Shown piece after piece: positions 450 to 47,456 of a stretch of DNA of 49,984 nt. The notes under the pieces are model-generated. The model saw nothing but the letters and a program-made list of their open reading frames with translations. It ran no database searches and was not told the origin of the DNA. The translations under genes were made by a program, and so were the position numbers. Source of the DNA: an uncultured Gammaproteobacteria bacterium (lineage in GTDB: Bacteria > Patescibacteriota > Patescibacteriia > 2-12-FULL-60-25); assembly GCA_964413995.1 (NCBI GenBank), contig CAYPUF010000001.1, positions 37,403-87,386 of the forward strand, given 5' to 3'. The first letter of the stretch is position 1. Every line of letters begins with the position of its first letter.

Positions 450-1793
450 ATGAAATTCGGCGACCCGATCAACACCGTCATCCAAGACTTCGACGAAAAA
501 GGCCGCGGATTCTCCCCTCCCTACGCCATCCCCTTTACCGCGCCCGGCGACGAGATCGAAGCGACGCTCGTGAAACGCGACAAAGGCGTGAAAATCGGAC
601 GCCTGTCGAACGTCGTGAAACGCGCTCCGGACCGGATCGACGCGCCCTGTCCGCATGCAGGGGTGTGCGGCGGCTGCCTCTGGCAGCATCTCGCCTACGA
701 CGCGCAGTTGCGTTTCAAGAAACACTTGATCAACCGCGCGTTCGAACGCGCGGGACACGATGAGCGCGTCGGCGACGTGATGCCCTCGCCGGAAACTTTT
801 TATTATCGCAATCGGATGGATTACGTGGTCGGCTGGAAAGGAGAGGTTGGCCTGAAGGAATACGGCTCATGGAACCGCTATCTCGATCTTTCCACGTGCC
901 TCTTGCTCGACAAGGAAACGCCCGCCATCCTCCAAACCGTCCGCGACCTGATGCGCGAACTCAAGATCGAGCCGTGGGACGCGAAAAAGTACACCGGCGA
1001 TCTCCGTTATTGCGTGATCCGCCTCGGCAAGAACACCGGCGAACGCATGATCACGCTCGTTGTGAGCGACTTGGCCCGGCTTGTCGCTCATCGTTCATCG
1101 CTCATCGAACGTCTTTCACCCTTCTGCAGCTCCCTCTACCTCGCGGAGAACCCCGAGATCACCGACCTGTCTCAAGGCAAAACGCTCGAACTCCTTCACG
1201 GAAACGAATTCCTCACCGAGGAAGTCAACGGCATACGCTACGCCGTCCATCCGAATTCGTTTTTCCAAACGAACACCGTCATGGCCGCAAAACTGCAGGA
1301 CGCCGTTCTGAATGCCGTGGGGGCGCCATTCATGGCGCCCGGGCGTGATAAATCATGCCCCTACAAAATCCTGGATTTGTATTGCGGCCTCGGCTTCTTC
1401 GGCATCGCCGCGGCAAAACGCGGCGCGGACGTGTACGGCCACGAGCTCGACGCACCCGCGATCGAACTTGCGAAGAAAAACGCGGACGCGAACGGCGTCG
1501 GTCATCGTTGCCGCTTCGGCGCGGGCCCGACCGAAGCGCTAGACTGGTCCGCGGAACATCCCGACGCCGTCATCGTGGATCCGCCCCGCGCGGGACTCCA
1601 CCCGAAGGCGCTCAAGGCGCTGCTCGAAAACGCGCCGCCCCGCATCGTGTACGTTTCGTGCAATTACCATCGCCTCGTGGATGAACTAAAACAACTCAAG
1701 ACGAAATACCGCGTCGAATCGCTCGAGGCGCTCGATCTCTTCCCTCAAACGCCGCATGTGGAGGTGGTCGCCTCGCTCATCAAACAAGCATGA
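450..1793 (+). CDS. 23S rRNA/tRNA (uracil-5)-methyltransferase, TrmA/RlmD (RumA) family
   Basis: Cys cluster CPHAGVCGGCLWQH, FFQTN, SAM motif ILDLYCGLGFFG, DPPRAGL, YVSCN, DLFPQTPHVE. Start moved to ATG 450 (MKFGDP); the ORF-track start at 393 lies in the terminator/repeat. Confidence 0.9.
   Translation: MKFGDPINTVIQDFDEKGRGFSPPYAIPFTAPGDEIEATLVKRDKGVKIGRLSNVVKRAPDRIDAPCPHAGVCGGCLWQHLAYDAQLRFKKHLINRAFERAGHDERVGDVMPSPETFYYRNRMDYVVGWKGEVGLKEYGSWNRYLDLSTCLLLDKETPAILQTVRDLMRELKIEPWDAKKYTGDLRYCVIRLGKNTGERMITLVVSDLARLVAHRSSLIERLSPFCSSLYLAENPEITDLSQGKTLELLHGNEFLTEEVNGIRYAVHPNSFFQTNTVMAAKLQDAVLNAVGAPFMAPGRDKSCPYKILDLYCGLGFFGIAAAKRGADVYGHELDAPAIELAKKNADANGVGHRCRFGAGPTEALDWSAEHPDAVIVDPPRAGLHPKALKALLENAPPRIVYVSCNYHRLVDELKQLKTKYRVESLEALDLFPQTPHVEVVASLIKQA
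1317..1364 (+). repeat. in-frame double-hairpin palindromic element, copy 1 (48 nt)
   Basis: GGGCGCCA-ttca-TGGCGCCC (1321-1340) plus GGGCGTGA-taaa-TCATGCCC (1341-1360). Translated as VGAPFMAPGRDKSCPY. Homologous to 41702-41755. Confidence 0.8.
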
Positions 1794-2738: not shown

Positions 2739-3499
2739 TGAAAGCCGAGGAGAGACGCGTTTTCCCCGCGCCCGCCGAACAGCCGCCGAAAACCGACGTA
2801 GAGCGTATCGGCGACCAGCATGCGCTCATGATGCGCTACGTGCGCAGCCTCGCGAAACCCGGACGCAAGCCCGGCACGCTCGAACGGCTCGATCCCCGCA
2901 CGTTTGACCCCGAAGACTACGAGGCCATGGCCTTTCGCCCGGATCTCTATGTCATCGAACCGGCGGCGATCGACGACTTGGAACGCGCGAAAGCCGAAGG
3001 CAAGGAGCGGCACGTGGAAATCATGCGTTCGGTGATCCGGGCCATGAGCTGGCCGAGCCATGGCCGCACGGATGACGAGGTGGCCTCCGCGCTCGCCGCC
3101 GGATTTCTGAAACACGCGCAGGAACGTTCCATGGGCCATGCCAAACCGCAGACGGGATTCGAGTTCGCCGATCCGGATCTCGCGGAATGGACGCGCGTCC
3201 TGAATGCGCTCGGCCGCGACGGCAGTTGCAAGGGCGAGGCCATTGAGAAACCGACGCGCTTCGTCGAGGTGCAAATCGTCGGGGCATGGAAGGAGCTGTT
3301 GGGACAGTTTCAAAAGAAACAACGGCGCGACAGCGAGTGGCCCACAAGCTATCCCGTCGCCGTGGATCCGCCAAAGCTCAGCCCGGCCGTCGCGGCCGTC
3401 GCGGACCGGCTCGTCAAGCTCCGGCATATCCGCGACCAGCTCTACTTCTGGCGGCTGTATCCGAAGCATTGCATGTACGCAAAATCGAACATCAAGTAG
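2735..3499 (+). CDS. hypothetical protein, translationally coupled to era
   Basis: ATG at 2735 overlaps the era stop (ATGA). Coherent 254-aa ORF; no motif recognised. Confidence 0.55.
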   Translation: MMKAEERRVFPAPAEQPPKTDVERIGDQHALMMRYVRSLAKPGRKPGTLERLDPRTFDPEDYEAMAFRPDLYVIEPAAIDDLERAKAEGKERHVEIMRSVIRAMSWPSHGRTDDEVASALAAGFLKHAQERSMGHAKPQTGFEFADPDLAEWTRVLNALGRDGSCKGEAIEKPTRFVEVQIVGAWKELLGQFQKKQRRDSEWPTSYPVAVDPPKLSPAVAAVADRLVKLRHIRDQLYFWRLYPKHCMYAKSNIK

Positions 3500-6027: not shown

Positions 6028-7568
6028 CCTCCGCTTGGAAAAAACACACGCTCGCGCTCGCGGTGGTCCTGCTGCCGATCGGCACGTATCTCGTTGCCAA
6101 GGCGCAAGACCCGCGCGGATGGGACCAGTGGGGTTTCGGGTCCGCGCAAACCGTGCTCACCGTGCGGCATTGGGCGCGCGACGGCATGATCGCCCACAAA
6201 TTCCTGTTCCTGCCTTCGGGATATCATCCCGCGATCGCGTTTCTCGACCGTCCCGAGTTCCGCTTCCTCGCCGACGGAACCAAGACGGGCGAGATCATCG
6301 GCAACCGGCTGTATTACACGCATTATCCGGCCGGATACCTCATCCCCTACGGCCTGCTCGCCAAACTCGGTGTGATCGAACGTGCGGGGTTGCGCGTCGC
6401 CGCTATCCTCTTCTCGATGATGGGCCTCGCGTTCTTCTACGGCTTTGTCTTCCTGTTCTCGAAACGCAACCACTGGATCGCGGCGATCGCGACCTTCTAT
6501 TACGCGACGACGACCGTGTTTCTGGGATACGCGGACTCGCTCGCGAACCAGCCCATCGACGATCTGTTCCGAAACGCGATCCTGTTCATCAGCCTCTATC
6601 GTTTTTCTGAAGCGAAGGACGAGATCGGGAAAAAGCGCCTCAATATTGCTACGTGGATCTTGTACTTCATCCTGGCGAGCAGTTCGTACGACTCAACATT
6701 CTTCGTCTTTATCTGGCTGTGCGGCTTGGACGTCATCGAACACAGGCGCCTACGGCTCGTCCGGCCTCTCGGCTGGGCACTGGCGCCGATTCTCGCCTTC
6801 GGGGTGCAGATCGCGCAGAACACGTGGTATCTCGGCGTCGCGGACATGATGCGGGATTTCTACGGCGCGTTCGCCTTCCGCTCCTCCGAAGCGCCCGCCG
6901 CGCTCGGCCGGCTCCCTCCGCTCGTGAAAAACGCTTCGGCCGCGCTTTCGCTCACCGGGTATCTCACGGGCCTGCGCGCACGCTTCGCGCTCCCGATCGC
7001 CGCGCTGCTCGTCTTCGCGGCCTGGCGTGCGAAGCTCGTGGACAGGACGCGTACGCGCTTGCTTGCCATCCTCGCCGTTGCCGGTATGACGTATCCGTTC
7101 CTGCTTCCCGTCGTCGGCACCTTCGGATACCAGGGACGCCAGCTCGCGCCGGCGCTCGTGACACTGCTCGCGATCGCGACCTATGTCCTGGCCACGAAAT
7201 GGAAAGGGATGAAATGGTCGGGCGTCCTGCTCGCGGCCCCGCTCGCCCTCCTGTGGGTCGCGCATTTCTGGGCTTTCGCCCGGTTCCTGAACGACGATCC
7301 GCAAAACGCCTTCACGCGCGAGCAGGTCGCGGCCTGGACCTCGATCGGGGCGCGCACATCGTCCACGGACATCCTGGTGTCGCCGTCGCTTGGTTCGGAA
7401 AAATTCTTCATCCAGGCGTACGCCGACCGGCTCATCCTCTCGTTTGACGATCCCGACACGATCGCCGAATACGCGCCGAAGATCCGCGATGCCTCCGGCG
7501 GACGCGTGCTGCTGCTGACGCAAGACGCGTTATCGGGAGATGTATTGATTGAGACTCTTCAGCCATGA
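6024..7568 (+). CDS. polytopic membrane protein, probable GT-C-like partner
   Basis: ATGA overlap with the previous gene. About 12 predicted TM segments; YYTHYPAGYLIPYGLL loop. Family not firmly recognised. Confidence 0.6.
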   Translation: MTSAWKKHTLALAVVLLPIGTYLVAKAQDPRGWDQWGFGSAQTVLTVRHWARDGMIAHKFLFLPSGYHPAIAFLDRPEFRFLADGTKTGEIIGNRLYYTHYPAGYLIPYGLLAKLGVIERAGLRVAAILFSMMGLAFFYGFVFLFSKRNHWIAAIATFYYATTTVFLGYADSLANQPIDDLFRNAILFISLYRFSEAKDEIGKKRLNIATWILYFILASSSYDSTFFVFIWLCGLDVIEHRRLRLVRPLGWALAPILAFGVQIAQNTWYLGVADMMRDFYGAFAFRSSEAPAALGRLPPLVKNASAALSLTGYLTGLRARFALPIAALLVFAAWRAKLVDRTRTRLLAILAVAGMTYPFLLPVVGTFGYQGRQLAPALVTLLAIATYVLATKWKGMKWSGVLLAAPLALLWVAHFWAFARFLNDDPQNAFTREQVAAWTSIGARTSSTDILVSPSLGSEKFFIQAYADRLILSFDDPDTIAEYAPKIRDASGGRVLLLTQDALSGDVLIETLQP

Positions 7569-9290: not shown

Positions 9291-10823
9291 TCAAAGACCC
9301 TGTAGATATCTTGCCAGGAGACGCACGCCGAAGCCGGACGCACCGGGCGGTTGGTCGGGGCGCGTCTCCCGTTCGGTGTACGACGGCCCCGCGATGTCGA
9401 GATGCGCCCAAGGGATTTCCGCCGGGACGAAGTGTTTCAGGAACATGGCGCCCGCGATCGCGCCGGCCTGCCCCTTTGCACCGACGTTTTTCACATCCGC
9501 GATCTTGGATTTGACGTGATCTTCGTAGGACGGATGCATCGGCAATTCCCAAAGCGGCTCTCCCGTCGCTTCCGCGGCGAGCTTGAGACGATCGAGCAGC
9601 TTGCGATCGGTACCCATGAGTCCCGCGATCTCCTCGCCGAGCGCGACGACGCACGCGCCGGTCAGCGTCGCGAGATCCACGATCGCGTCGGGCTTGAGCG
9701 TCGCGGCATACGAAAGCGCGTCCGCGAGCACGACGCGGCCCTCCGCGTCCGTATTCAGGATTTCGATGGTGGTGCCGTTCATCGCGCGCACCACGTCGCC
9801 GGGGCGGTACGCCTTTCCGGACGGCATGTTCTCGACGGCGAGGAAGATACCGTGCACCTCGACGTTCGGCGCGAGCTCCGGCAATGCCTTGAACAAGCCA
9901 AGCACGCTCGCGGCGCCCGCCATGTCGATCTTCATCGTCGTCATCCCGTCGGCCGGCTTGAGAGACAATCCCCCGGAATCAAATGTCACGGCCTTCCCTA
10001 CGATCACGATGCGTTTCTGCTTTCCCTGCTCCTTCAGGCTTTTTCCTTCAGGCTTATAGATCAAGTGCACGCCAACCGGTTCGTATTCCGAGCCGCGGCC
10101 AACCGCGAGCGCCGCGTGCATCTTCATCCGTTCCAGGCGCGCGCGGTCGAGGACCTTGACCGATACGCGCTTCGACAACGCGGCGAGCTCCCTGGCGACG
10201 TCGGCCATGGCCGCGGGCGTCATGTCCTGCGAAGGCGTGTTCACAAGATCGCGCGCGAGGCACGTCGCCCCGGCAAGTGCGGCCGCTTCGAGGAAGCCGC
10301 GTTCGATCGCCGCCACGGACGTCGCGGACGGCTCATAGACGGTGAGCGTCTTGAGTTTCGTTTTCGTGTGACGATCCGCGTTCCGCTTGTGATACGCATG
10401 AAACCCGTACGCGGCGAGATGCGCGCCCTCCGCGAACGCGGCGCCCGCCTCGCGCGCGGACAACGAGGACGACGGAAGCGCCGACCACGTGGTCGCGACG
10501 TTTTTCGCTTTCAACTCGCGCGCCTTCTTGACCGTGATCGCGCCGAGGCGGCGATACGTGTCGGCCGTGATCGTGTCGCGTCCTCCCGCGCCGATGAACG
10601 CCACGAACTTCGCTTTCAGCGTGCCGTACGTCGGCAAGATCAGGATATCGCCCAGCCCGCCCTCGAATCCGCGGCTTTCAGCATGCGCGACCAGATCCTC
10701 GTCCAGCCGTTTCTTGAACGTGGCCGTCAAACCGGAAAACAGCGTTTTTCCTTTGGTGACGGGCAAAACAACCATGTCCGAAGCCTGGTCGAACGGACTG
10801 CCCCCTAAAACACGTATTTCCAT
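9291..10823 (-). CDS. pepA: leucyl aminopeptidase (M17)
   Basis: VGKAVTFDSGGLSLKP, NTDAEGR and GACVVALG motifs. Start set to MEIRVLGG (10823). Confidence 0.9.
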   Translation of the reverse strand: MEIRVLGGSPFDQASDMVVLPVTKGKTLFSGLTATFKKRLDEDLVAHAESRGFEGGLGDILILPTYGTLKAKFVAFIGAGGRDTITADTYRRLGAITVKKARELKAKNVATTWSALPSSSLSAREAGAAFAEGAHLAAYGFHAYHKRNADRHTKTKLKTLTVYEPSATSVAAIERGFLEAAALAGATCLARDLVNTPSQDMTPAAMADVARELAALSKRVSVKVLDRARLERMKMHAALAVGRGSEYEPVGVHLIYKPEGKSLKEQGKQKRIVIVGKAVTFDSGGLSLKPADGMTTMKIDMAGAASVLGLFKALPELAPNVEVHGIFLAVENMPSGKAYRPGDVVRAMNGTTIEILNTDAEGRVVLADALSYAATLKPDAIVDLATLTGACVVALGEEIAGLMGTDRKLLDRLKLAAEATGEPLWELPMHPSYEDHVKSKIADVKNVGAKGQAGAIAGAMFLKHFVPAEIPWAHLDIAGPSYTERETRPDQPPGASGFGVRLLARYLQGL

Positions 10824-10885
10824 AGAACCCGACCTTATCCACATGTCAGGGATGATGCAACCCGACAAAAAAAGACCCGGAGGGG

Positions 10886-11701
10886 TCAGAGGAACCGCTC
10901 ACGAACGTTTCGCGCCTTCATCCGTCGGCGATGCGACTCGCATACGTCAGCCGAGAGAAACCGCGATTCGCCCAGATTGCAGTAGTACACCACACGACGC
11001 TCGATGACGAGCCAGGCGCGTCGCTGCGAGCGAGGCTTGTGGTCGAAGTGGTCGAGGAGGGCGGCGTCCGGATTGAAGAGGATCGGATGCTCGACCGCTT
11101 CCAACATCGAGGCGTCGCTCATGGCGTCGCCGACCGCGATCGAACCCTCGAACGTCAGGCCTTCGCGCCGAGCGATCTCTTCCCGCAAGACCTCTCCCTT
11201 TCTCGCGGCATGCACGACGACACGATCCGGCGTTCCATACAGCTTGCCGTCCGGGTCGAGATCGTACTCCGTACCGAGCACCACATCGAACCCCCACTCC
11301 CGCGCAAACGGCTCGGCCACTCCGTGGAACGACCCGCTGATCGCGACGGTGAAGTATCCGCGCTCCCGGACCGCATGAAGCAGCTCACGGGTGAACAGGT
11401 ACGTCCGGTCGCGTTCGCGACGCGCGATCTCCTCCGCGATCGCATGCACCGCCGCGGCGTCAAGGCCGGCAAAGAAGCCGCGATCGAGCACTTGGCAGAA
11501 CTCGGTGCCGTACTCGCCGTACGGCACAAGCCGCCGGTCATAGGCGTCCCGGAGACCGTCCGCCTTTTCAAAGGCGTCCGCGGGAGCGAGTCCGCGACGC
11601 ACGCATTCGCGCGCCACGCATTCGCCCAGCGACTCCCCGGAACGGGTACCGCGATGCAGCGTCGCGTCGATATCGAAACAGGCAACTCTTCGCTTATTCA
11701 C
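10886..11701 (-). CDS. HAD-IB family hydrolase (phosphoserine phosphatase-like)
   Basis: DxD motif CFDIDATL, ISGS, and GDAMSDASML motif IV. GTG start at 11701 is preceded by GGAGGTG (11706-11712). Confidence 0.75.
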   Translation of the reverse strand: MNKRRVACFDIDATLHRGTRSGESLGECVARECVRRGLAPADAFEKADGLRDAYDRRLVPYGEYGTEFCQVLDRGFFAGLDAAAVHAIAEEIARRERDRTYLFTRELLHAVRERGYFTVAISGSFHGVAEPFAREWGFDVVLGTEYDLDPDGKLYGTPDRVVVHAARKGEVLREEIARREGLTFEGSIAVGDAMSDASMLEAVEHPILFNPDAALLDHFDHKPRSQRRAWLVIERRVVYYCNLGESRFLSADVCESHRRRMKARNVRERFL

Positions 11702-22655: not shown

Positions 22656-22729
22656 TGGCTCGGGGACCAGGGCTCGAACCTGGATTCACGGCTCCAAAGG
22701 CCGCTGTCCTACCATTAGACGATCCCCGA
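22656..22729 (-). tRNA. tRNA-Gln (UUG), CCA encoded
   Basis: The reverse complement folds as a cloverleaf: acceptor TCGGGGA/TCCCCGA, anticodon loop CTTTGGA, T-arm CCAGG-TTCGAGC-CCTGG, G-CCA end. Followed by hairpin 22627-22655. Confidence 0.9.
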
Positions 22730-23806: not shown

Positions 23807-25298
<1,492 letters not shown>

Positions 25299-29792: not shown

Positions 29793-29862
29793 GCGTAGAG
29801 TGAAGAGCGTAGGGTGTAGAGTCGGAATCTTCGCTCTATGCTCTATGCTCTATGCTCTTCAT
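29793..29862. repeat. ten in-phase heptamers forming a dyad (atpZ-atpB spacer)
   Basis: gcgtaga gtgaaga gcgtagg gtgtaga gtcggaa | tcttcgc tctatgc tctatgc tctatgc tcttcat. The right arm encodes the last 8 residues and stop of atpZ. Confidence 0.8.
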
Positions 29863-30617: not shown

Positions 30618-31252
30618 ACCGTTTCCATGCGTTCGCGATGTAGTGTGATGAGATCGTTCACGATCAAGCCTGCGCGGCGCACGGCCTCCGCCGGACCCAG
30701 CGAGGGCTCGGCCGCAAGCAGCGCTTCGGCGGCGCGCCAGAGCCACTCCTTGGGTTGGCGATGGTGGTGATGCGCGACCAGCGCCGCCTGTTCGGGCGAA
30801 ACGCCCTGCGCCTGCCAGTTCCGCATGACGGATAGGCCGTGCAGCATCGCGGCGCGCAAGTCCTCTTTTTCCGGATACGCGCCATGCCCGTCCGGGCGCA
30901 CAACCGCCCGATCACGGACGCGTTCCGTGACAACATACTCCAGCGAACCGATGCGGCGCGTCTCCGTGCGGAATGCCGGATCGCCCACGATCGCGTCAAC
31001 ATTGAACCCCTCGACCGCTTTGGCCGGCACGCGCGCGGCCTCGGCTTCCAGCCCGAGCCCGATCTCGCCGTCTTCCTCTTCCAGCCCGATCCCGGTCCCC
31101 TTGAGCAGGCGGTTCGCGCGCTTCCGGAGCTCCGCGCGCAGCCGTTCGCGCTCCTTGGATTCACGCGCCTCGGCCACAGCACGAATGTCGCGCTCTGACC
31201 CGTTTGTCTCGCTCTTCGCTCTTCGCTCTGCACTCTGCGCTTCTCTCATCAT
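30614..31252 (-). CDS. hypothetical charged protein (up to 212 aa)
   Basis: Starts 2 nt after the ftsX stop. The first 16 codons or so are six in-phase heptamer words (31204-31245), so the true start may be downstream (for example the GTG giving VAEARE). Contains an HHHH run. Confidence 0.45.
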   Translation of the reverse strand: MMREAQSAERRAKSETNGSERDIRAVAEARESKERERLRAELRKRANRLLKGTGIGLEEEDGEIGLGLEAEAARVPAKAVEGFNVDAIVGDPAFRTETRRIGSLEYVVTERVRDRAVVRPDGHGAYPEKEDLRAAMLHGLSVMRNWQAQGVSPEQAALVAHHHHRQPKEWLWRAAEALLAAEPSLGPAEAVRRAGLIVNDLITLHRERMETV

Positions 31253-35675: not shown

Positions 35676-35740
35676 AACGTGAAGGTGAAGAGTGAAACGC
35701 CTGACGCTACGCTCTACGCGTTACGCTCTACGCTTTTTTT
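35672..35740. repeat. two tandem heptamer arrays plus T7
   Basis: gtgaaac gtgaagg (g)tgaaga gtgaaac, then gctacgc tctacgc gttacgc tctacgc, then ttttttt. The arms are not complementary. Confidence 0.65.
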
Positions 35741-40857: not shown

Positions 40858-40934
40858 TGGTGGACGTTGCAGGATTCGAACCTGCGACCTCACCGATGTG
40901 AACGGTGCGCTCTAACCAACTGAGCTAAACGTCC
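40858..40934 (-). tRNA. tRNA-Val (CAC), CCA encoded
   Basis: Reverse complement: GGACGTT..GCTCAGTTGGTTAGAGC..CACCG-TTCACAT-CGGTG..GCAGG-TTCGAAT-CCTGC-AACGTCC-A-CCA. Confidence 0.92.
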
Positions 40935-40978: not shown

Positions 40979-41899
40979 ATGGACAAAACCCTCGGCATGT
41001 GGATTTCCGGCGCCGCGCAGGCGCTGGAAGCGATCGCGGAAGACCGCGAGCAGGCCTGGATCGAGGCAAGAAGGCTCGCGGCATTCGGTTTGAAAAAACC
41101 GGAATCCTGGCTCGTGGCGCATACGGACAAGACGCTGACAAAAAGACAGACGGACGCGCTCGCCCCGTTACGGAAACGTAGGCTCAAACGCGAGCCCATG
41201 GAATATCTCCTCGGTTCGGCCGTTTTCTTCGGCCGGGAATTCGCCGTCGACAAGCACGTCCTGATTCCGCGCCCGGAGACCGAGGATCTTGTCGTCGAAG
41301 CGTTGAAGGAGATCCGGCCGGGCGATCTCGTCGTAGAGATCGGGACCGGGTCGGGCGCGATCGCCATCACCGTCGCGGCCGAACGCCCCGGCGTGACGGT
41401 GTTCACAAGCGATACCGACGCGGCCGCGCTCTCGGTCGCAAGAAAAAACGCGCGGCGACTCGCGCCGGGGCGCATCCGCTTCTTCCACGGATCGCTGTTC
41501 CATCCCGCACTGATCCGTGCGATTCGCACCGCAGGAGCAAGGCGCGCCTTGCCCCTACGCATCCACACGCTCGCCAATCTCCCCTATCTTCCGTTCTCCG
41601 ACCGGAAAACCATGCCCGTCTCGGTCGTGAAATACGAACCCGCCAAGGCGCTCTTCGCGAAAGATGATGGGATGGAATTGAACAAAAAATTGATGGAACA
41701 GGTAGGGGCGCAATTCATTGCGCCCCCGAGCGGGCGTGATAAATCACGCCCCTACATGGCCATTCTCCTCGAACTCGACCCGCCGCAATCAAAAAAACTC
41801 TCCGCCTTTGCGAAGAGCCTCTTTCCCGATGCCGATGTTTCCATCATCCGCGACCGATGCGGGAGAGAAAGAATTTTACGCGTAACGCGTAGAGCATGA
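40979..41899 (+). CDS. prmC: peptide chain release factor N5-glutamine methyltransferase (PrmC/HemK)
   Basis: EPMEYLLGSAVFFGREF, LIPRPETE, EIGTGSGAI, and a catalytic tetrad present as NLPY. Carries palindromic insert(s). Confidence 0.85.
   Translation: MDKTLGMWISGAAQALEAIAEDREQAWIEARRLAAFGLKKPESWLVAHTDKTLTKRQTDALAPLRKRRLKREPMEYLLGSAVFFGREFAVDKHVLIPRPETEDLVVEALKEIRPGDLVVEIGTGSGAIAITVAAERPGVTVFTSDTDAAALSVARKNARRLAPGRIRFFHGSLFHPALIRAIRTAGARRALPLRIHTLANLPYLPFSDRKTMPVSVVKYEPAKALFAKDDGMELNKKLMEQVGAQFIAPPSGRDKSRPYMAILLELDPPQSKKLSAFAKSLFPDADVSIIRDRCGRERILRVTRRA
41702..41755 (+). repeat. in-frame double-hairpin palindromic element, copy 2 (54 nt)
   Basis: GTAGGGGCG...CGCCCCTAC 9-bp terminal inverted repeats. 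GGGGCGCAA-ttca-TTGCGCCCC and GGGCGTGA-taaa-TCACGCCC hairpins. Translated as VGAQFIAPPSGRDKSRPY. Confidence 0.85.
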
Positions 41900-47394: not shown

Positions 47395-47456
47395 AGAAAT
47401 TAGAAGTTAGAATCTAGGCTAATTGGCTCGCTTCTAGATTCTAGCTTCTAACTTCT
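47395..47456. repeat. TAGAAG-word hairpin, homologous to 25208-25318
   Basis: agaaatt agaagtt agaatct agg ... loop ... cttctag attctag cttctaa cttctcc. About 22 bp of stem with 2 mismatches. Confidence 0.8.

Follow-up and report, generated by a model that had tools for sequence, protein, structure and literature searches.

A probable head-to-head heterodimer of GTAG-tagged REP elements, in frame in two methyltransferase genes of a candidate Uhrbacteria genome

Here we describe a short palindromic element that lies in frame in two unrelated genes of an uncultured bacterium (GenBank assembly GCA_964413995.1, contig CAYPUF010000001.1, positions 37,403 to 87,386 of the forward strand). The stretch analyzed, referred to below as the window, is 49,984 nucleotides long and has a G+C content of 61%. 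From the names borne by the closest homologues, the host was judged to be a member of Candidatus Uhrbacteria, in the Patescibacteria or Candidate Phyla Radiation (CPR). One copy of the element lies inside a gene for an RNA methyltransferase of the RumA/RlmD type and the other inside prmC (site B), and a related single unit also lies in prmC (site A). The hairpins of all three sites are described here as units of repetitive extragenic palindromic (REP) elements, the family to which they are assigned below. The features, in window coordinates, are as follows.

450-1793, + strand: host gene 1, RumA/RlmD-type RNA (uracil-C5) methyltransferase of 447 aa (P0001; Pfam PF05958; PDB 2jjq, E = 1.5e-75; an identical 447-aa protein is in the database).
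1317-1364, + strand: copy 1, whole element of 48 nt, GTGGGGGCGCCATTCATGGCGCCCGGGCGTGATAAATCATGCCCCTAC, inside the open reading frame (ORF) 450-1793, encoding VGAPFMAPGRDKSCPY directly before ILDLYCG.
1317-1340, + strand: copy 1, REP unit 1, with the mutated tag GTGG and hairpin GGGCGCCA/ttca/TGGCGCCC, encoding VGAPFMAP.
1341-1364, - strand: copy 1, REP unit 2, inverted, with tag GTAG at 1364-1361 and a hairpin with one G:T pair; the + strand encodes GRDKSCPY.
40979-41899, + strand: host gene 2, PrmC/HemK release-factor glutamine methyltransferase of 306 aa (P0121; Pfam PF17827 and PF05175; PDB matches to HemK).
41531-41558, - strand: prmC site A, single REP unit GCAGGAGCAAGGCGCGCCTTGCCCCTAC, with the 3' tag intact on the + strand and the other decayed (GCAG), encoding AGARRALPL.
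41702-41755, + strand: copy 2, whole element of 54 nt, inside prmC, encoding VGAQFIAPPSGRDKSRPY.
41702-41725, + strand: copy 2, REP unit 1, GTAG and hairpin GGGCGCAA/ttca/TTGCGCCC, encoding VGAQFIAP.
41726-41731, no strand: copy 2, 6-nt spacer CCGAGC between the units, absent from copy 1.
41732-41755, - strand: copy 2, REP unit 2, inverted, GTAG at 41755-41752 and hairpin GGGCGTGA/taaa/TCACGCCC; the + strand encodes GRDKSRPY.

The best solved relatives of the first host protein are those from Pyrococcus, 2jjq and 8z62. On this basis the enzyme appears nearer to the archaeal and RumA-like U54/U747 methyltransferases than to E. coli RlmD, which leaves the argument below unaffected.

The hairpin unit is 24 nt long and reads GTAG + GGGCG NN ATT(C/T)AT NN CGCCC, and in each copy two units are inverted with their tags outward (GTAGGGGCGCAATTCATTGCGCCC gives a GTAG-tagged REP sequence in its single-stranded form). 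Both copies read GT(A/G)G-GGGCG..ATTCAT..CGCCC, then the inverted GGGCGTGATAAATCA(C/T)GCCC-CTAC; both end in CCC-CTAC, while copy 2 starts with GTAG-GGG and copy 1 with GTGG-GGG. Each copy folds, as RNA and as DNA, into two 8-9 bp hairpins with 4-nt loops, and the folds of the two copies are far more stable than those of shuffled sequences (RNA z = -4.9 and -6.6; DNA z = -5.0 and -7.3). In DNA and in sense RNA the two hairpins are separate, the arms being only partly complementary, and one long hairpin forms only in the antisense RNA of copy 2, aided by G:U pairs. The pair next to loop 1 is compensatory (C:G in copy 1, A:T in copy 2), and the sole non-Watson-Crick pair is a G:T in stem 2 of copy 1, on the sense strand. 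The original prediction, made from this DNA alone, had claimed two copies of one double hairpin, in frame in unrelated genes and distinguished by the 6-nt spacer, the compensatory pair and the lone G:T pair. The positions, the stems and the matches of the halves bear this claim out, and each of the three differences is present.

The halves of the element match only these two places in the window (at most 3 mismatches), with 0 matches expected (100 shuffles). The unit at site A was located by scanning for strong hairpins that follow a GTAG, giving a window total of five REP units at three sites, every site intragenic. A generic scan for GTAG plus any hairpin was uninformative (30 per 1000 tags, compared with about 21 in control tetranucleotides), and such scans are informative only with strong stems. 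The flanks of the two copies are without direct repeat (AATGCC|...|AAAATC for copy 1, GAACAG|...|ATGGCC for copy 2). A search of the window against Rfam returned two tRNAs only, with no family for the element and no intron-like features, and no elements of the CGTC type were found in the window.

The outward GTAG tag on each hairpin therefore marks the element as a probable head-to-head (HH) heterodimer of GTAG REPs. These were surveyed by Di Nocera, De Gregorio and Rocco (2013, BMC Genomics 14:522, PMC3733652), who define them by a terminal GTAG (with variants GYAG, GTRG and GTGG), a 6-13 bp stem, a short loop and a unit of 20-40 bp. The authors describe HH dimers with the tags outside, some with partners 1-5 bp apart (1-2 bp in Opitutus terrae), as well as heterodimers, and they document the GTGG tag variant in O. 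terrae GTAG-20 (PMC3733652). A minority of the REPs lie wholly inside ORFs, in genes including truB, and dimers or groups that encode 20-30 residues make up over half of this minority. In-frame dimers of GTAG REPs within genes are given for hosts that include Opitutus terrae, Geobacter uraniireducens and Thioalkalivibrio (PMC3733652). In the same text REP termini can provide TAG stop codons, and frequent G:T pairs are taken as a sign of function at the RNA level (PMC3733652).

The window element has the tag, the stem, loop and unit size, the dispersed-family character and the HH arrangement of GTAG REP dimers (spacers of 0 and 6 nt). The assignment rests on the definition in the text and on its peptide table and is made at the level of the superfamily, above the families GTAG-1 to GTAG-24. 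Of the tabulated peptides, VGAGCPRPGRGDRAP of G. uraniireducens closely resembles the window peptides, and RNA-modification enzymes (TruB) are hosts in both the published and the present cases. The statement in the original prediction that no equivalent had been described thus does not stand, since the element has the defining features of GTAG REPs and intragenic in-frame dimers of these were catalogued in 2013 (PMC3733652). The feature is real and non-random, yet it falls in a class already described. The present cases differ from the published ones in several respects. Patescibacteria/CPR lie outside the 8 phyla reported in the survey; the present type (GGGCG-NN-ATTYAT-NN-CGCCC) occurs in contigs of very different G+C content and not in one genus; the window spacers are 0-6 nt; and the same loops are used by the GTAG and CGTC superfamilies.

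Other known systems share some of these properties. The mobile unit of REP doublets (REPINs) and their REP-associated tyrosine transposases (RAYTs), as described in published work (Bertels and Rainey 2011, PMC3116915; Nunvar et al. 2010, PMC2817692; PMC3479197; PMC8266576), consists of two inverted REPs, like the window doublet, although REPINs fold into one long hairpin (PMC3116915) and the DNA of the window element forms two. In the proposed model a transposase of the HUH/Y1 type reads the hairpin plus GTAG in single-stranded DNA, and a genome related to the present one has a RAYT-like gene with a cognate-looking REP. Rickettsia palindromic elements (RPEs) are, like the window element, palindromic, in frame in conserved genes, surface-exposed and compatible with function (Ogata et al. 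2000, 2002; Claverie and Ogata 2003, as cited in PMC3733652). The same paper treats the CGTC repeats found inside R. conorii genes as RPE-4/RPE-6, short elements whose host is an alphaproteobacterium and whose tags are CGTC, whereas the window element has GTAG tags (PMC3733652). The window peptides also differ from the VIPAKAGI, SFPRKRES and WIPAFAGMT of RPE/CGTC elements. Another element, RPE-1, is longer, at roughly 100-150 bp. Miniature inverted-repeat transposable elements (MITEs; Correia/NEMIS, ERIC, RUP, Nezha) are also short, non-autonomous inverted repeats that at times lie inside ORFs, and they usually make target-site duplications. MITEs measure 70-300 bp, have terminal inverted repeats of 15-30 bp and derive from insertion sequences, according to PMC3733652, while the window element measures 48-54 bp and has GTAG tags.

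Comparison with orthologues indicates that the encoded residues are inserted, as the original prediction had proposed. In most Patescibacteria orthologues of RlmD, 31-34 residues separate FFQTN and LDLYCG, while the window protein has 43, and Pyrococcus 2jjq has 12 residues fewer at the insert point. Most close orthologues are empty at this site, which supports the earlier suggestion of a lineage-specific insert. Where the insert is missing, the native loop reads x-[LVI]-G-x-P, as in YVGAPKT (L026) and LVGAPAH (L024; loci of relatives and metagenomes are labelled L, and proteins P). Structure prediction, suggested earlier as a check on whether the peptide is a surface loop, puts the doublets of both host proteins in the lowest-confidence loops of AlphaFold models whose folds are confident elsewhere. 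For RlmD (mean predicted local distance difference test score, pLDDT, 93; predicted template modelling score, pTM, 0.91) the insert residues 290-305 lie in the lowest block (68) and form the loop between helix 276-290 and strand β1 306-310, which starts the S-adenosylmethionine (SAM)-binding motif. In the PrmC model (mean pLDDT 96), the blocks of lowest confidence (84 and 79) fall at site B, which lies between helix 233-246 and strand 259-265, and a strand likewise follows site A.

The RlmD loop is occupied by different palindromes in different relatives. It holds GTAG REP dimers whose stems are wholly different yet still paired (L001 and L002), a double-tagged single REP (L004), a REP with a large loop (L025), a decayed REP (L038), CGTC-type REPs (L020, about 10700-10760; L027; L023) and a palindrome built of heptamers, (GAGCGAG)n/(CTCGCTC)n (L040). 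In the closest relative (L003, about 10870-10900) the loop carries an unrelated palindrome with an 11-bp stem, TCCCTCTCCTT-acg-AAGGAGAGGGA, encoding the peptide SLSLRRRGT. The element in this loop has been replaced within about 18% protein divergence.

A similar picture was obtained for prmC. At site A single GTAG REPs occur in three relatives, and in the closest of these (L205) the REP is intact and double-tagged, GTAGGGGCAAGGCGCGCCTTGCCCCTAC. The identical 28-mer occurs again 4 kb off in L205, at 6468-6495 (two copies within 21 kb), at the 3' end of a gene on the - strand (6492-7502), and its GTAG tag forms the TAG stop codon of this gene, a role of REP termini that PMC3733652 also reports for other species. 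At site B the same dimer is present in L204, whose PrmC is only 53% identical; the REP units of the two are identical at 45 of 48 nt, compared with 54-65% nucleotide identity in the flanks. Elsewhere site B holds CGTC REPs (PrmC orthologues P0124, P0133, P0136, P0143 and P0155) or other palindromes in some relatives, and is empty in most. The CGTC REPs in Uhrbacteria loops encode the CGTC-1 and CGTC-4 peptides VIPAKAGI, WIPAFAGMT and VIPRLDRGN, an assignment made from the peptide table of PMC3733652 (VIPAKAGI, WIPAFAGMT and CHSRESGNP for CGTC-1; VIPRLDRGI for CGTC-4). The likeness to Rickettsia palindromic elements drawn in the original prediction is apt in this respect, RPE-4/RPE-6 being CGTC REPs and CGTC REPs filling the same loops in other Uhrbacteria. 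Both published REP superfamilies thus occur in frame in CPR genes. Further in-frame GTAG REPs include a dimer in truB (L020, 1333-1398, GRGEPMRSPSDRPEGRHMGLPLR) and a unit in a variable linker of GyrB (L204, 13344-13367, encoding VGAHGDAS) that is lacking from gyrB of the window and of L205.

Comparing filled with empty sites, no consistent target sequence or duplication was found, and the inserts replace varying numbers of native loop codons. The reuse of loops by unrelated families, together with the conservation at site B, may possibly reflect a filter for permissive loops, attraction to resident hairpins, gene conversion or selection on structure.

The original prediction laid weight on the shared strand and codon phase of the two copies, and this weight is not warranted, as stop codons alone predict both. 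In the consensus doublet of copy 2, five of the six combinations of strand and phase contain stops, and the element sits in the sixth. In copy 1 one more frame is open, solely because its tag is mutated from GTAG to GTGG. With only one stop-free combination available, the shared strand and phase therefore amount to survivorship and need no special mechanism; they are what selection against truncated essential proteins would leave.

The wider family was sought by scanning metagenomes with the pattern GTAGGGGCGNNATTYATNNCGCCC, in which four N positions were left free. The pattern occurs in at least 120 metagenome stretches, and the 80 listed contigs span 35-74% G+C. Among these 80 listed loci, both free stem pairs are Watson-Crick in 75 of 86 distinct occurrences, and the inner free pair alone in 84 of 86 (40% expected), as G:C (45), A:T (23) or C:G (16). 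The C:G and A:T pairs that distinguish the window copies are thus one case of stem covariation across the family. Of the checks proposed with the original prediction, the wider search for copies yielded the unit at site A and the related copies in relatives and metagenomes, and covariation of the stems is seen at the inner free pair.

In the fetched metagenome loci 27 HH dimers were counted, with outward tags and spacers of 1-28 nt, and several of them join a unit with the ATTYAT loop to GGGCGTGATAAATCACGCCCCTAC, like the window element. Many Patescibacteria loci show the architecture GTAG-GGGC-stem-loop-stem-GCCC, either singly or in dimers whose tags face outward. ORFs of at least 200 aa hold 36 of 141 sites in the metagenome loci (26%), compared with 74% of random positions (p = 4e-31); the family in these loci is mostly extragenic, like classical REPs. 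A preference of CPR REPs for genes was considered from the raw counts (13 of 18 sites, compared with 36 of 141; p = 1.5e-4) and rejected, since the loci had been fetched around those very sites; after removal of the sites that guided sampling, the intragenic share in Patescibacteria is about 2-3 of 10. Other Patescibacteria sites include one just upstream of the lepA start (L025) and one in an ORF without family support (L033). Seven regularly spaced copies in L162 were considered as a CRISPR array, but their 'spacers' are identical, and the locus is a tandem array. Such tandem arrays of 60-61-nt units, with one GTAG REP each and identical sequence between the REPs, are seen in L162 (12115-12501) and L133 (3333-3857), and are not CRISPR.

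The fetched loci and the window were searched for RAYT genes with E. coli RayT and an iterated local profile. Four RAYT-like ORFs were found among the fetched loci. In the Patescibacteria locus L038 one lies directly downstream of rlmD (6113-6508) and encodes YFVTICTKGRE...VIMPNHVHMIV, with the HUH motif PNHVHMIV, followed by a GTAG REP encoding VGAHCVRP. Its best NCBIfam match is REP_Tyr_transpos (REP-associated tyrosine transposase), below the curated cut-off, and it has 319 database relatives from many phyla, often annotated as RayT or PF01797. At the DNA level, three of the RAYT-like genes contain a GTAG hairpin in frame after the HUH motif:

L038, 6113-6508: RAYT-like gene, REP at 6419-6441.
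L083, 2800-3342: RAYT-like gene, REP at 3020-3043.
L206, 3001-3534: RAYT-like gene, REP at 3280-3308.

Of 117 homologues of the L038 ORF, at least 46 have peptides of the REP type directly behind the HUH motif, and the RAYT-like protein P0350 has VGAPFMAPD, which contains the VGAPFMAP of window unit 1. E. coli RayT has a gap where the RAYT-like genes carry the embedded REP. The present genes thus differ from known RAYTs in holding a REP inside the ORF and not only flanking it, and we found no description of a REP inside RAYT-like ORFs.

Taken as a whole, the window element is very probably an HH heterodimer of GTAG REPs, REPIN-like and non-autonomous, that survives in frame in tolerant loops of essential genes. 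This explanation draws on what was observed of anatomy, repetition, stem covariation, presence and absence in orthologues, loop location, the stop filter and the RAYT-like gene of a relative. By analogy with the studied systems, a RAYT (HUH/Y1) would bind the units as folded single-stranded DNA hairpins with their 5' GTAG, then cleave and transfer strands, which is thought to disperse the units. Binding and cleavage by the E. coli enzyme TnpA-REP need the folded hairpin and GTAG, and mutation of any one GTAG base abolishes both (Messing et al. 2012, PMC3479197). Perfect palindromes are recognized by a further group of enzymes, and cleavage and transfer of REPs by RAYT have been demonstrated in three systems only, those of E. 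coli, S. maltophilia and Marinomonas (Corneloup et al. 2021, PMC8266576; PMC3479197). By comparison with the E. coli case, copy 1 (GTGG tag, one G:T pair) and the unit at site A (GCAG) probably are decaying, immobilized relics, whereas copy 2 is intact. In a small, gene-dense Uhrbacteria genome, the three window sites would be those able to survive inside essential genes, namely units in frame, in the sole stop-free strand and phase, and placed in surface loops, leading from helix to strand in Rossmann-fold methyltransferases, that may tolerate 9-18 added residues. We infer that a RAYT mobilized these copies, that the genome encodes a RAYT, and that the inserts are translated and harmless, most likely as neutral or near-neutral loop extensions.

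Several points weigh against this explanation. The search with RayT and the profile detected no RAYT gene in the 50-kb window, and the RAYT-like ORF of L038 is truncated by the contig end. The NCBIfam scores of this ORF and of that in L083 are 30.7 and 41.3 bits, respectively, against a cut-off of 80. Transposition of REPs in vivo is undemonstrated even in model systems, according to PMC8266576. The three window sites all lie inside genes, which is not the norm in this family, and a REP-typical copy number across the genome is extrapolated from these three sites (five units). The conservation of site B could reflect constraint on the hairpins instead of recent mobility.

Another explanation, which we regard as unlikely, is that the hairpins, having arrived maybe as REPs, were exapted as cis-acting structures and kept for a role in mRNA or DNA. 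Candidate roles are slowing of the ribosome at a domain boundary, protection from or targeting by RNase, and binding of gyrase or nucleoid proteins, as with E. coli REPs. The great stability of the folds, the retention at site B of 45 of 48 nt amid flanks of 54-65% identity between distant relatives, and the position of all inserts directly before a Rossmann-fold beta strand are consistent with such a role, as is the lone non-Watson-Crick pair, a G:T on the sense strand (frequent G:T pairs being linked with an RNA role in PMC3733652). Most close orthologues, however, lack the insert and are presumably functional, unrelated palindromes fill the same loops in other lineages, the tags and stem have decayed in copy 1 and site A, and elsewhere the family is mostly extragenic, all of which speak against such a role.

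It is improbable that the insert is removed or bypassed at the RNA level, giving a protein without the 16 residues. Such a process would resemble that in CPR bacteria whose rRNA genes have insertions absent from the mature rRNA, and the element does form a compact, stable RNA structure. Its lengths of 48 and 54 nt are nevertheless multiples of three, each in a stop-free frame, which is a signature of selection on translation; no Rfam match or intron-like features were found for the element; and exact removal of the element would take out more than was gained, the element encoding 16 residues and the excess over empty orthologues being only about 12. RPE-bearing proteins of Rickettsia, moreover, are expressed with their inserts, as stated in PMC3733652.

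An old, vertically inherited loop whose palindromy arose locally or by chance, without a mobile element, is very improbable and effectively refuted: the native x-[LVI]-G-x-P does resemble the VGAP start of the insert, but the 24-nt units occur in two unrelated window genes (0 matches expected by chance), in relatives both within other genes and between genes, and in at least 120 metagenome stretches, and their distribution among orthologues is patchy. Lastly, the genome is a metagenome-assembled genome and palindromes can cause misassembly, but an assembly or sequencing artefact can practically be dismissed, as the reading frames are intact and equivalent inserts stand at the same sites in independent assemblies from different studies (L001, L002, L004, L204 and L205).

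The window also contains two tRNA genes, at 40861-40934 and at 22659-22729 (- strand), one of them directly upstream of prmC. Short tandem repeats with a period of 7 nt (GTTACGT, AGAAGCT, GCTCTAT and others) are mostly intergenic, with units that vary by site:

421-444, 1844-1877, 25208-25235, 29833-29858, 31209-31241, 35707-35734 and 47430-47456: 7-nt-period tandem repeats.

A literature search covering open-access papers and preprints found no report linking REPs to Patescibacteria/CPR, and searches with the DNA and peptide strings of the element returned nothing relevant. The features that appear to be new are the host group, the filling of the same loops by GTAG as well as CGTC superfamily members, the broad distribution of this REP type and the presence of a REP within RAYT-like genes. 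A broader and more doubtful proposal is that of a cosmopolitan REP-RAYT system, in which the transposase gene carries its own in-frame GTAG hairpin between the HUH motif and the tyrosine region, and which, spread across phyla of differing G+C content including CPR, would together with CGTC REPs repeatedly seed and replace short peptide loops at the same permissive places in essential genes.

The present cases would extend GTAG-type REPs and protein-coding palindromes to the Candidate Phyla Radiation. For annotation, such elements account for many odd peptides (among them VGA...RPY, GAMNxAPT and VIPAKAGI) in metagenomic proteins and in spurious ORFs, and the stop filter cautions that a shared strand and codon phase is no evidence for a special mechanism when stops leave one open frame. 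A REP inside a RAYT-like ORF could bear on the co-evolution of REPs and their transposases. The filling of the same helix-to-strand loops of RlmD and PrmC by unrelated palindromes across lineages offers a natural experiment on insertion-tolerant loops and, if the broader proposal is true, REPs would time and again supply reduced genomes with variation in protein loops, beyond their part as intergenic passengers.

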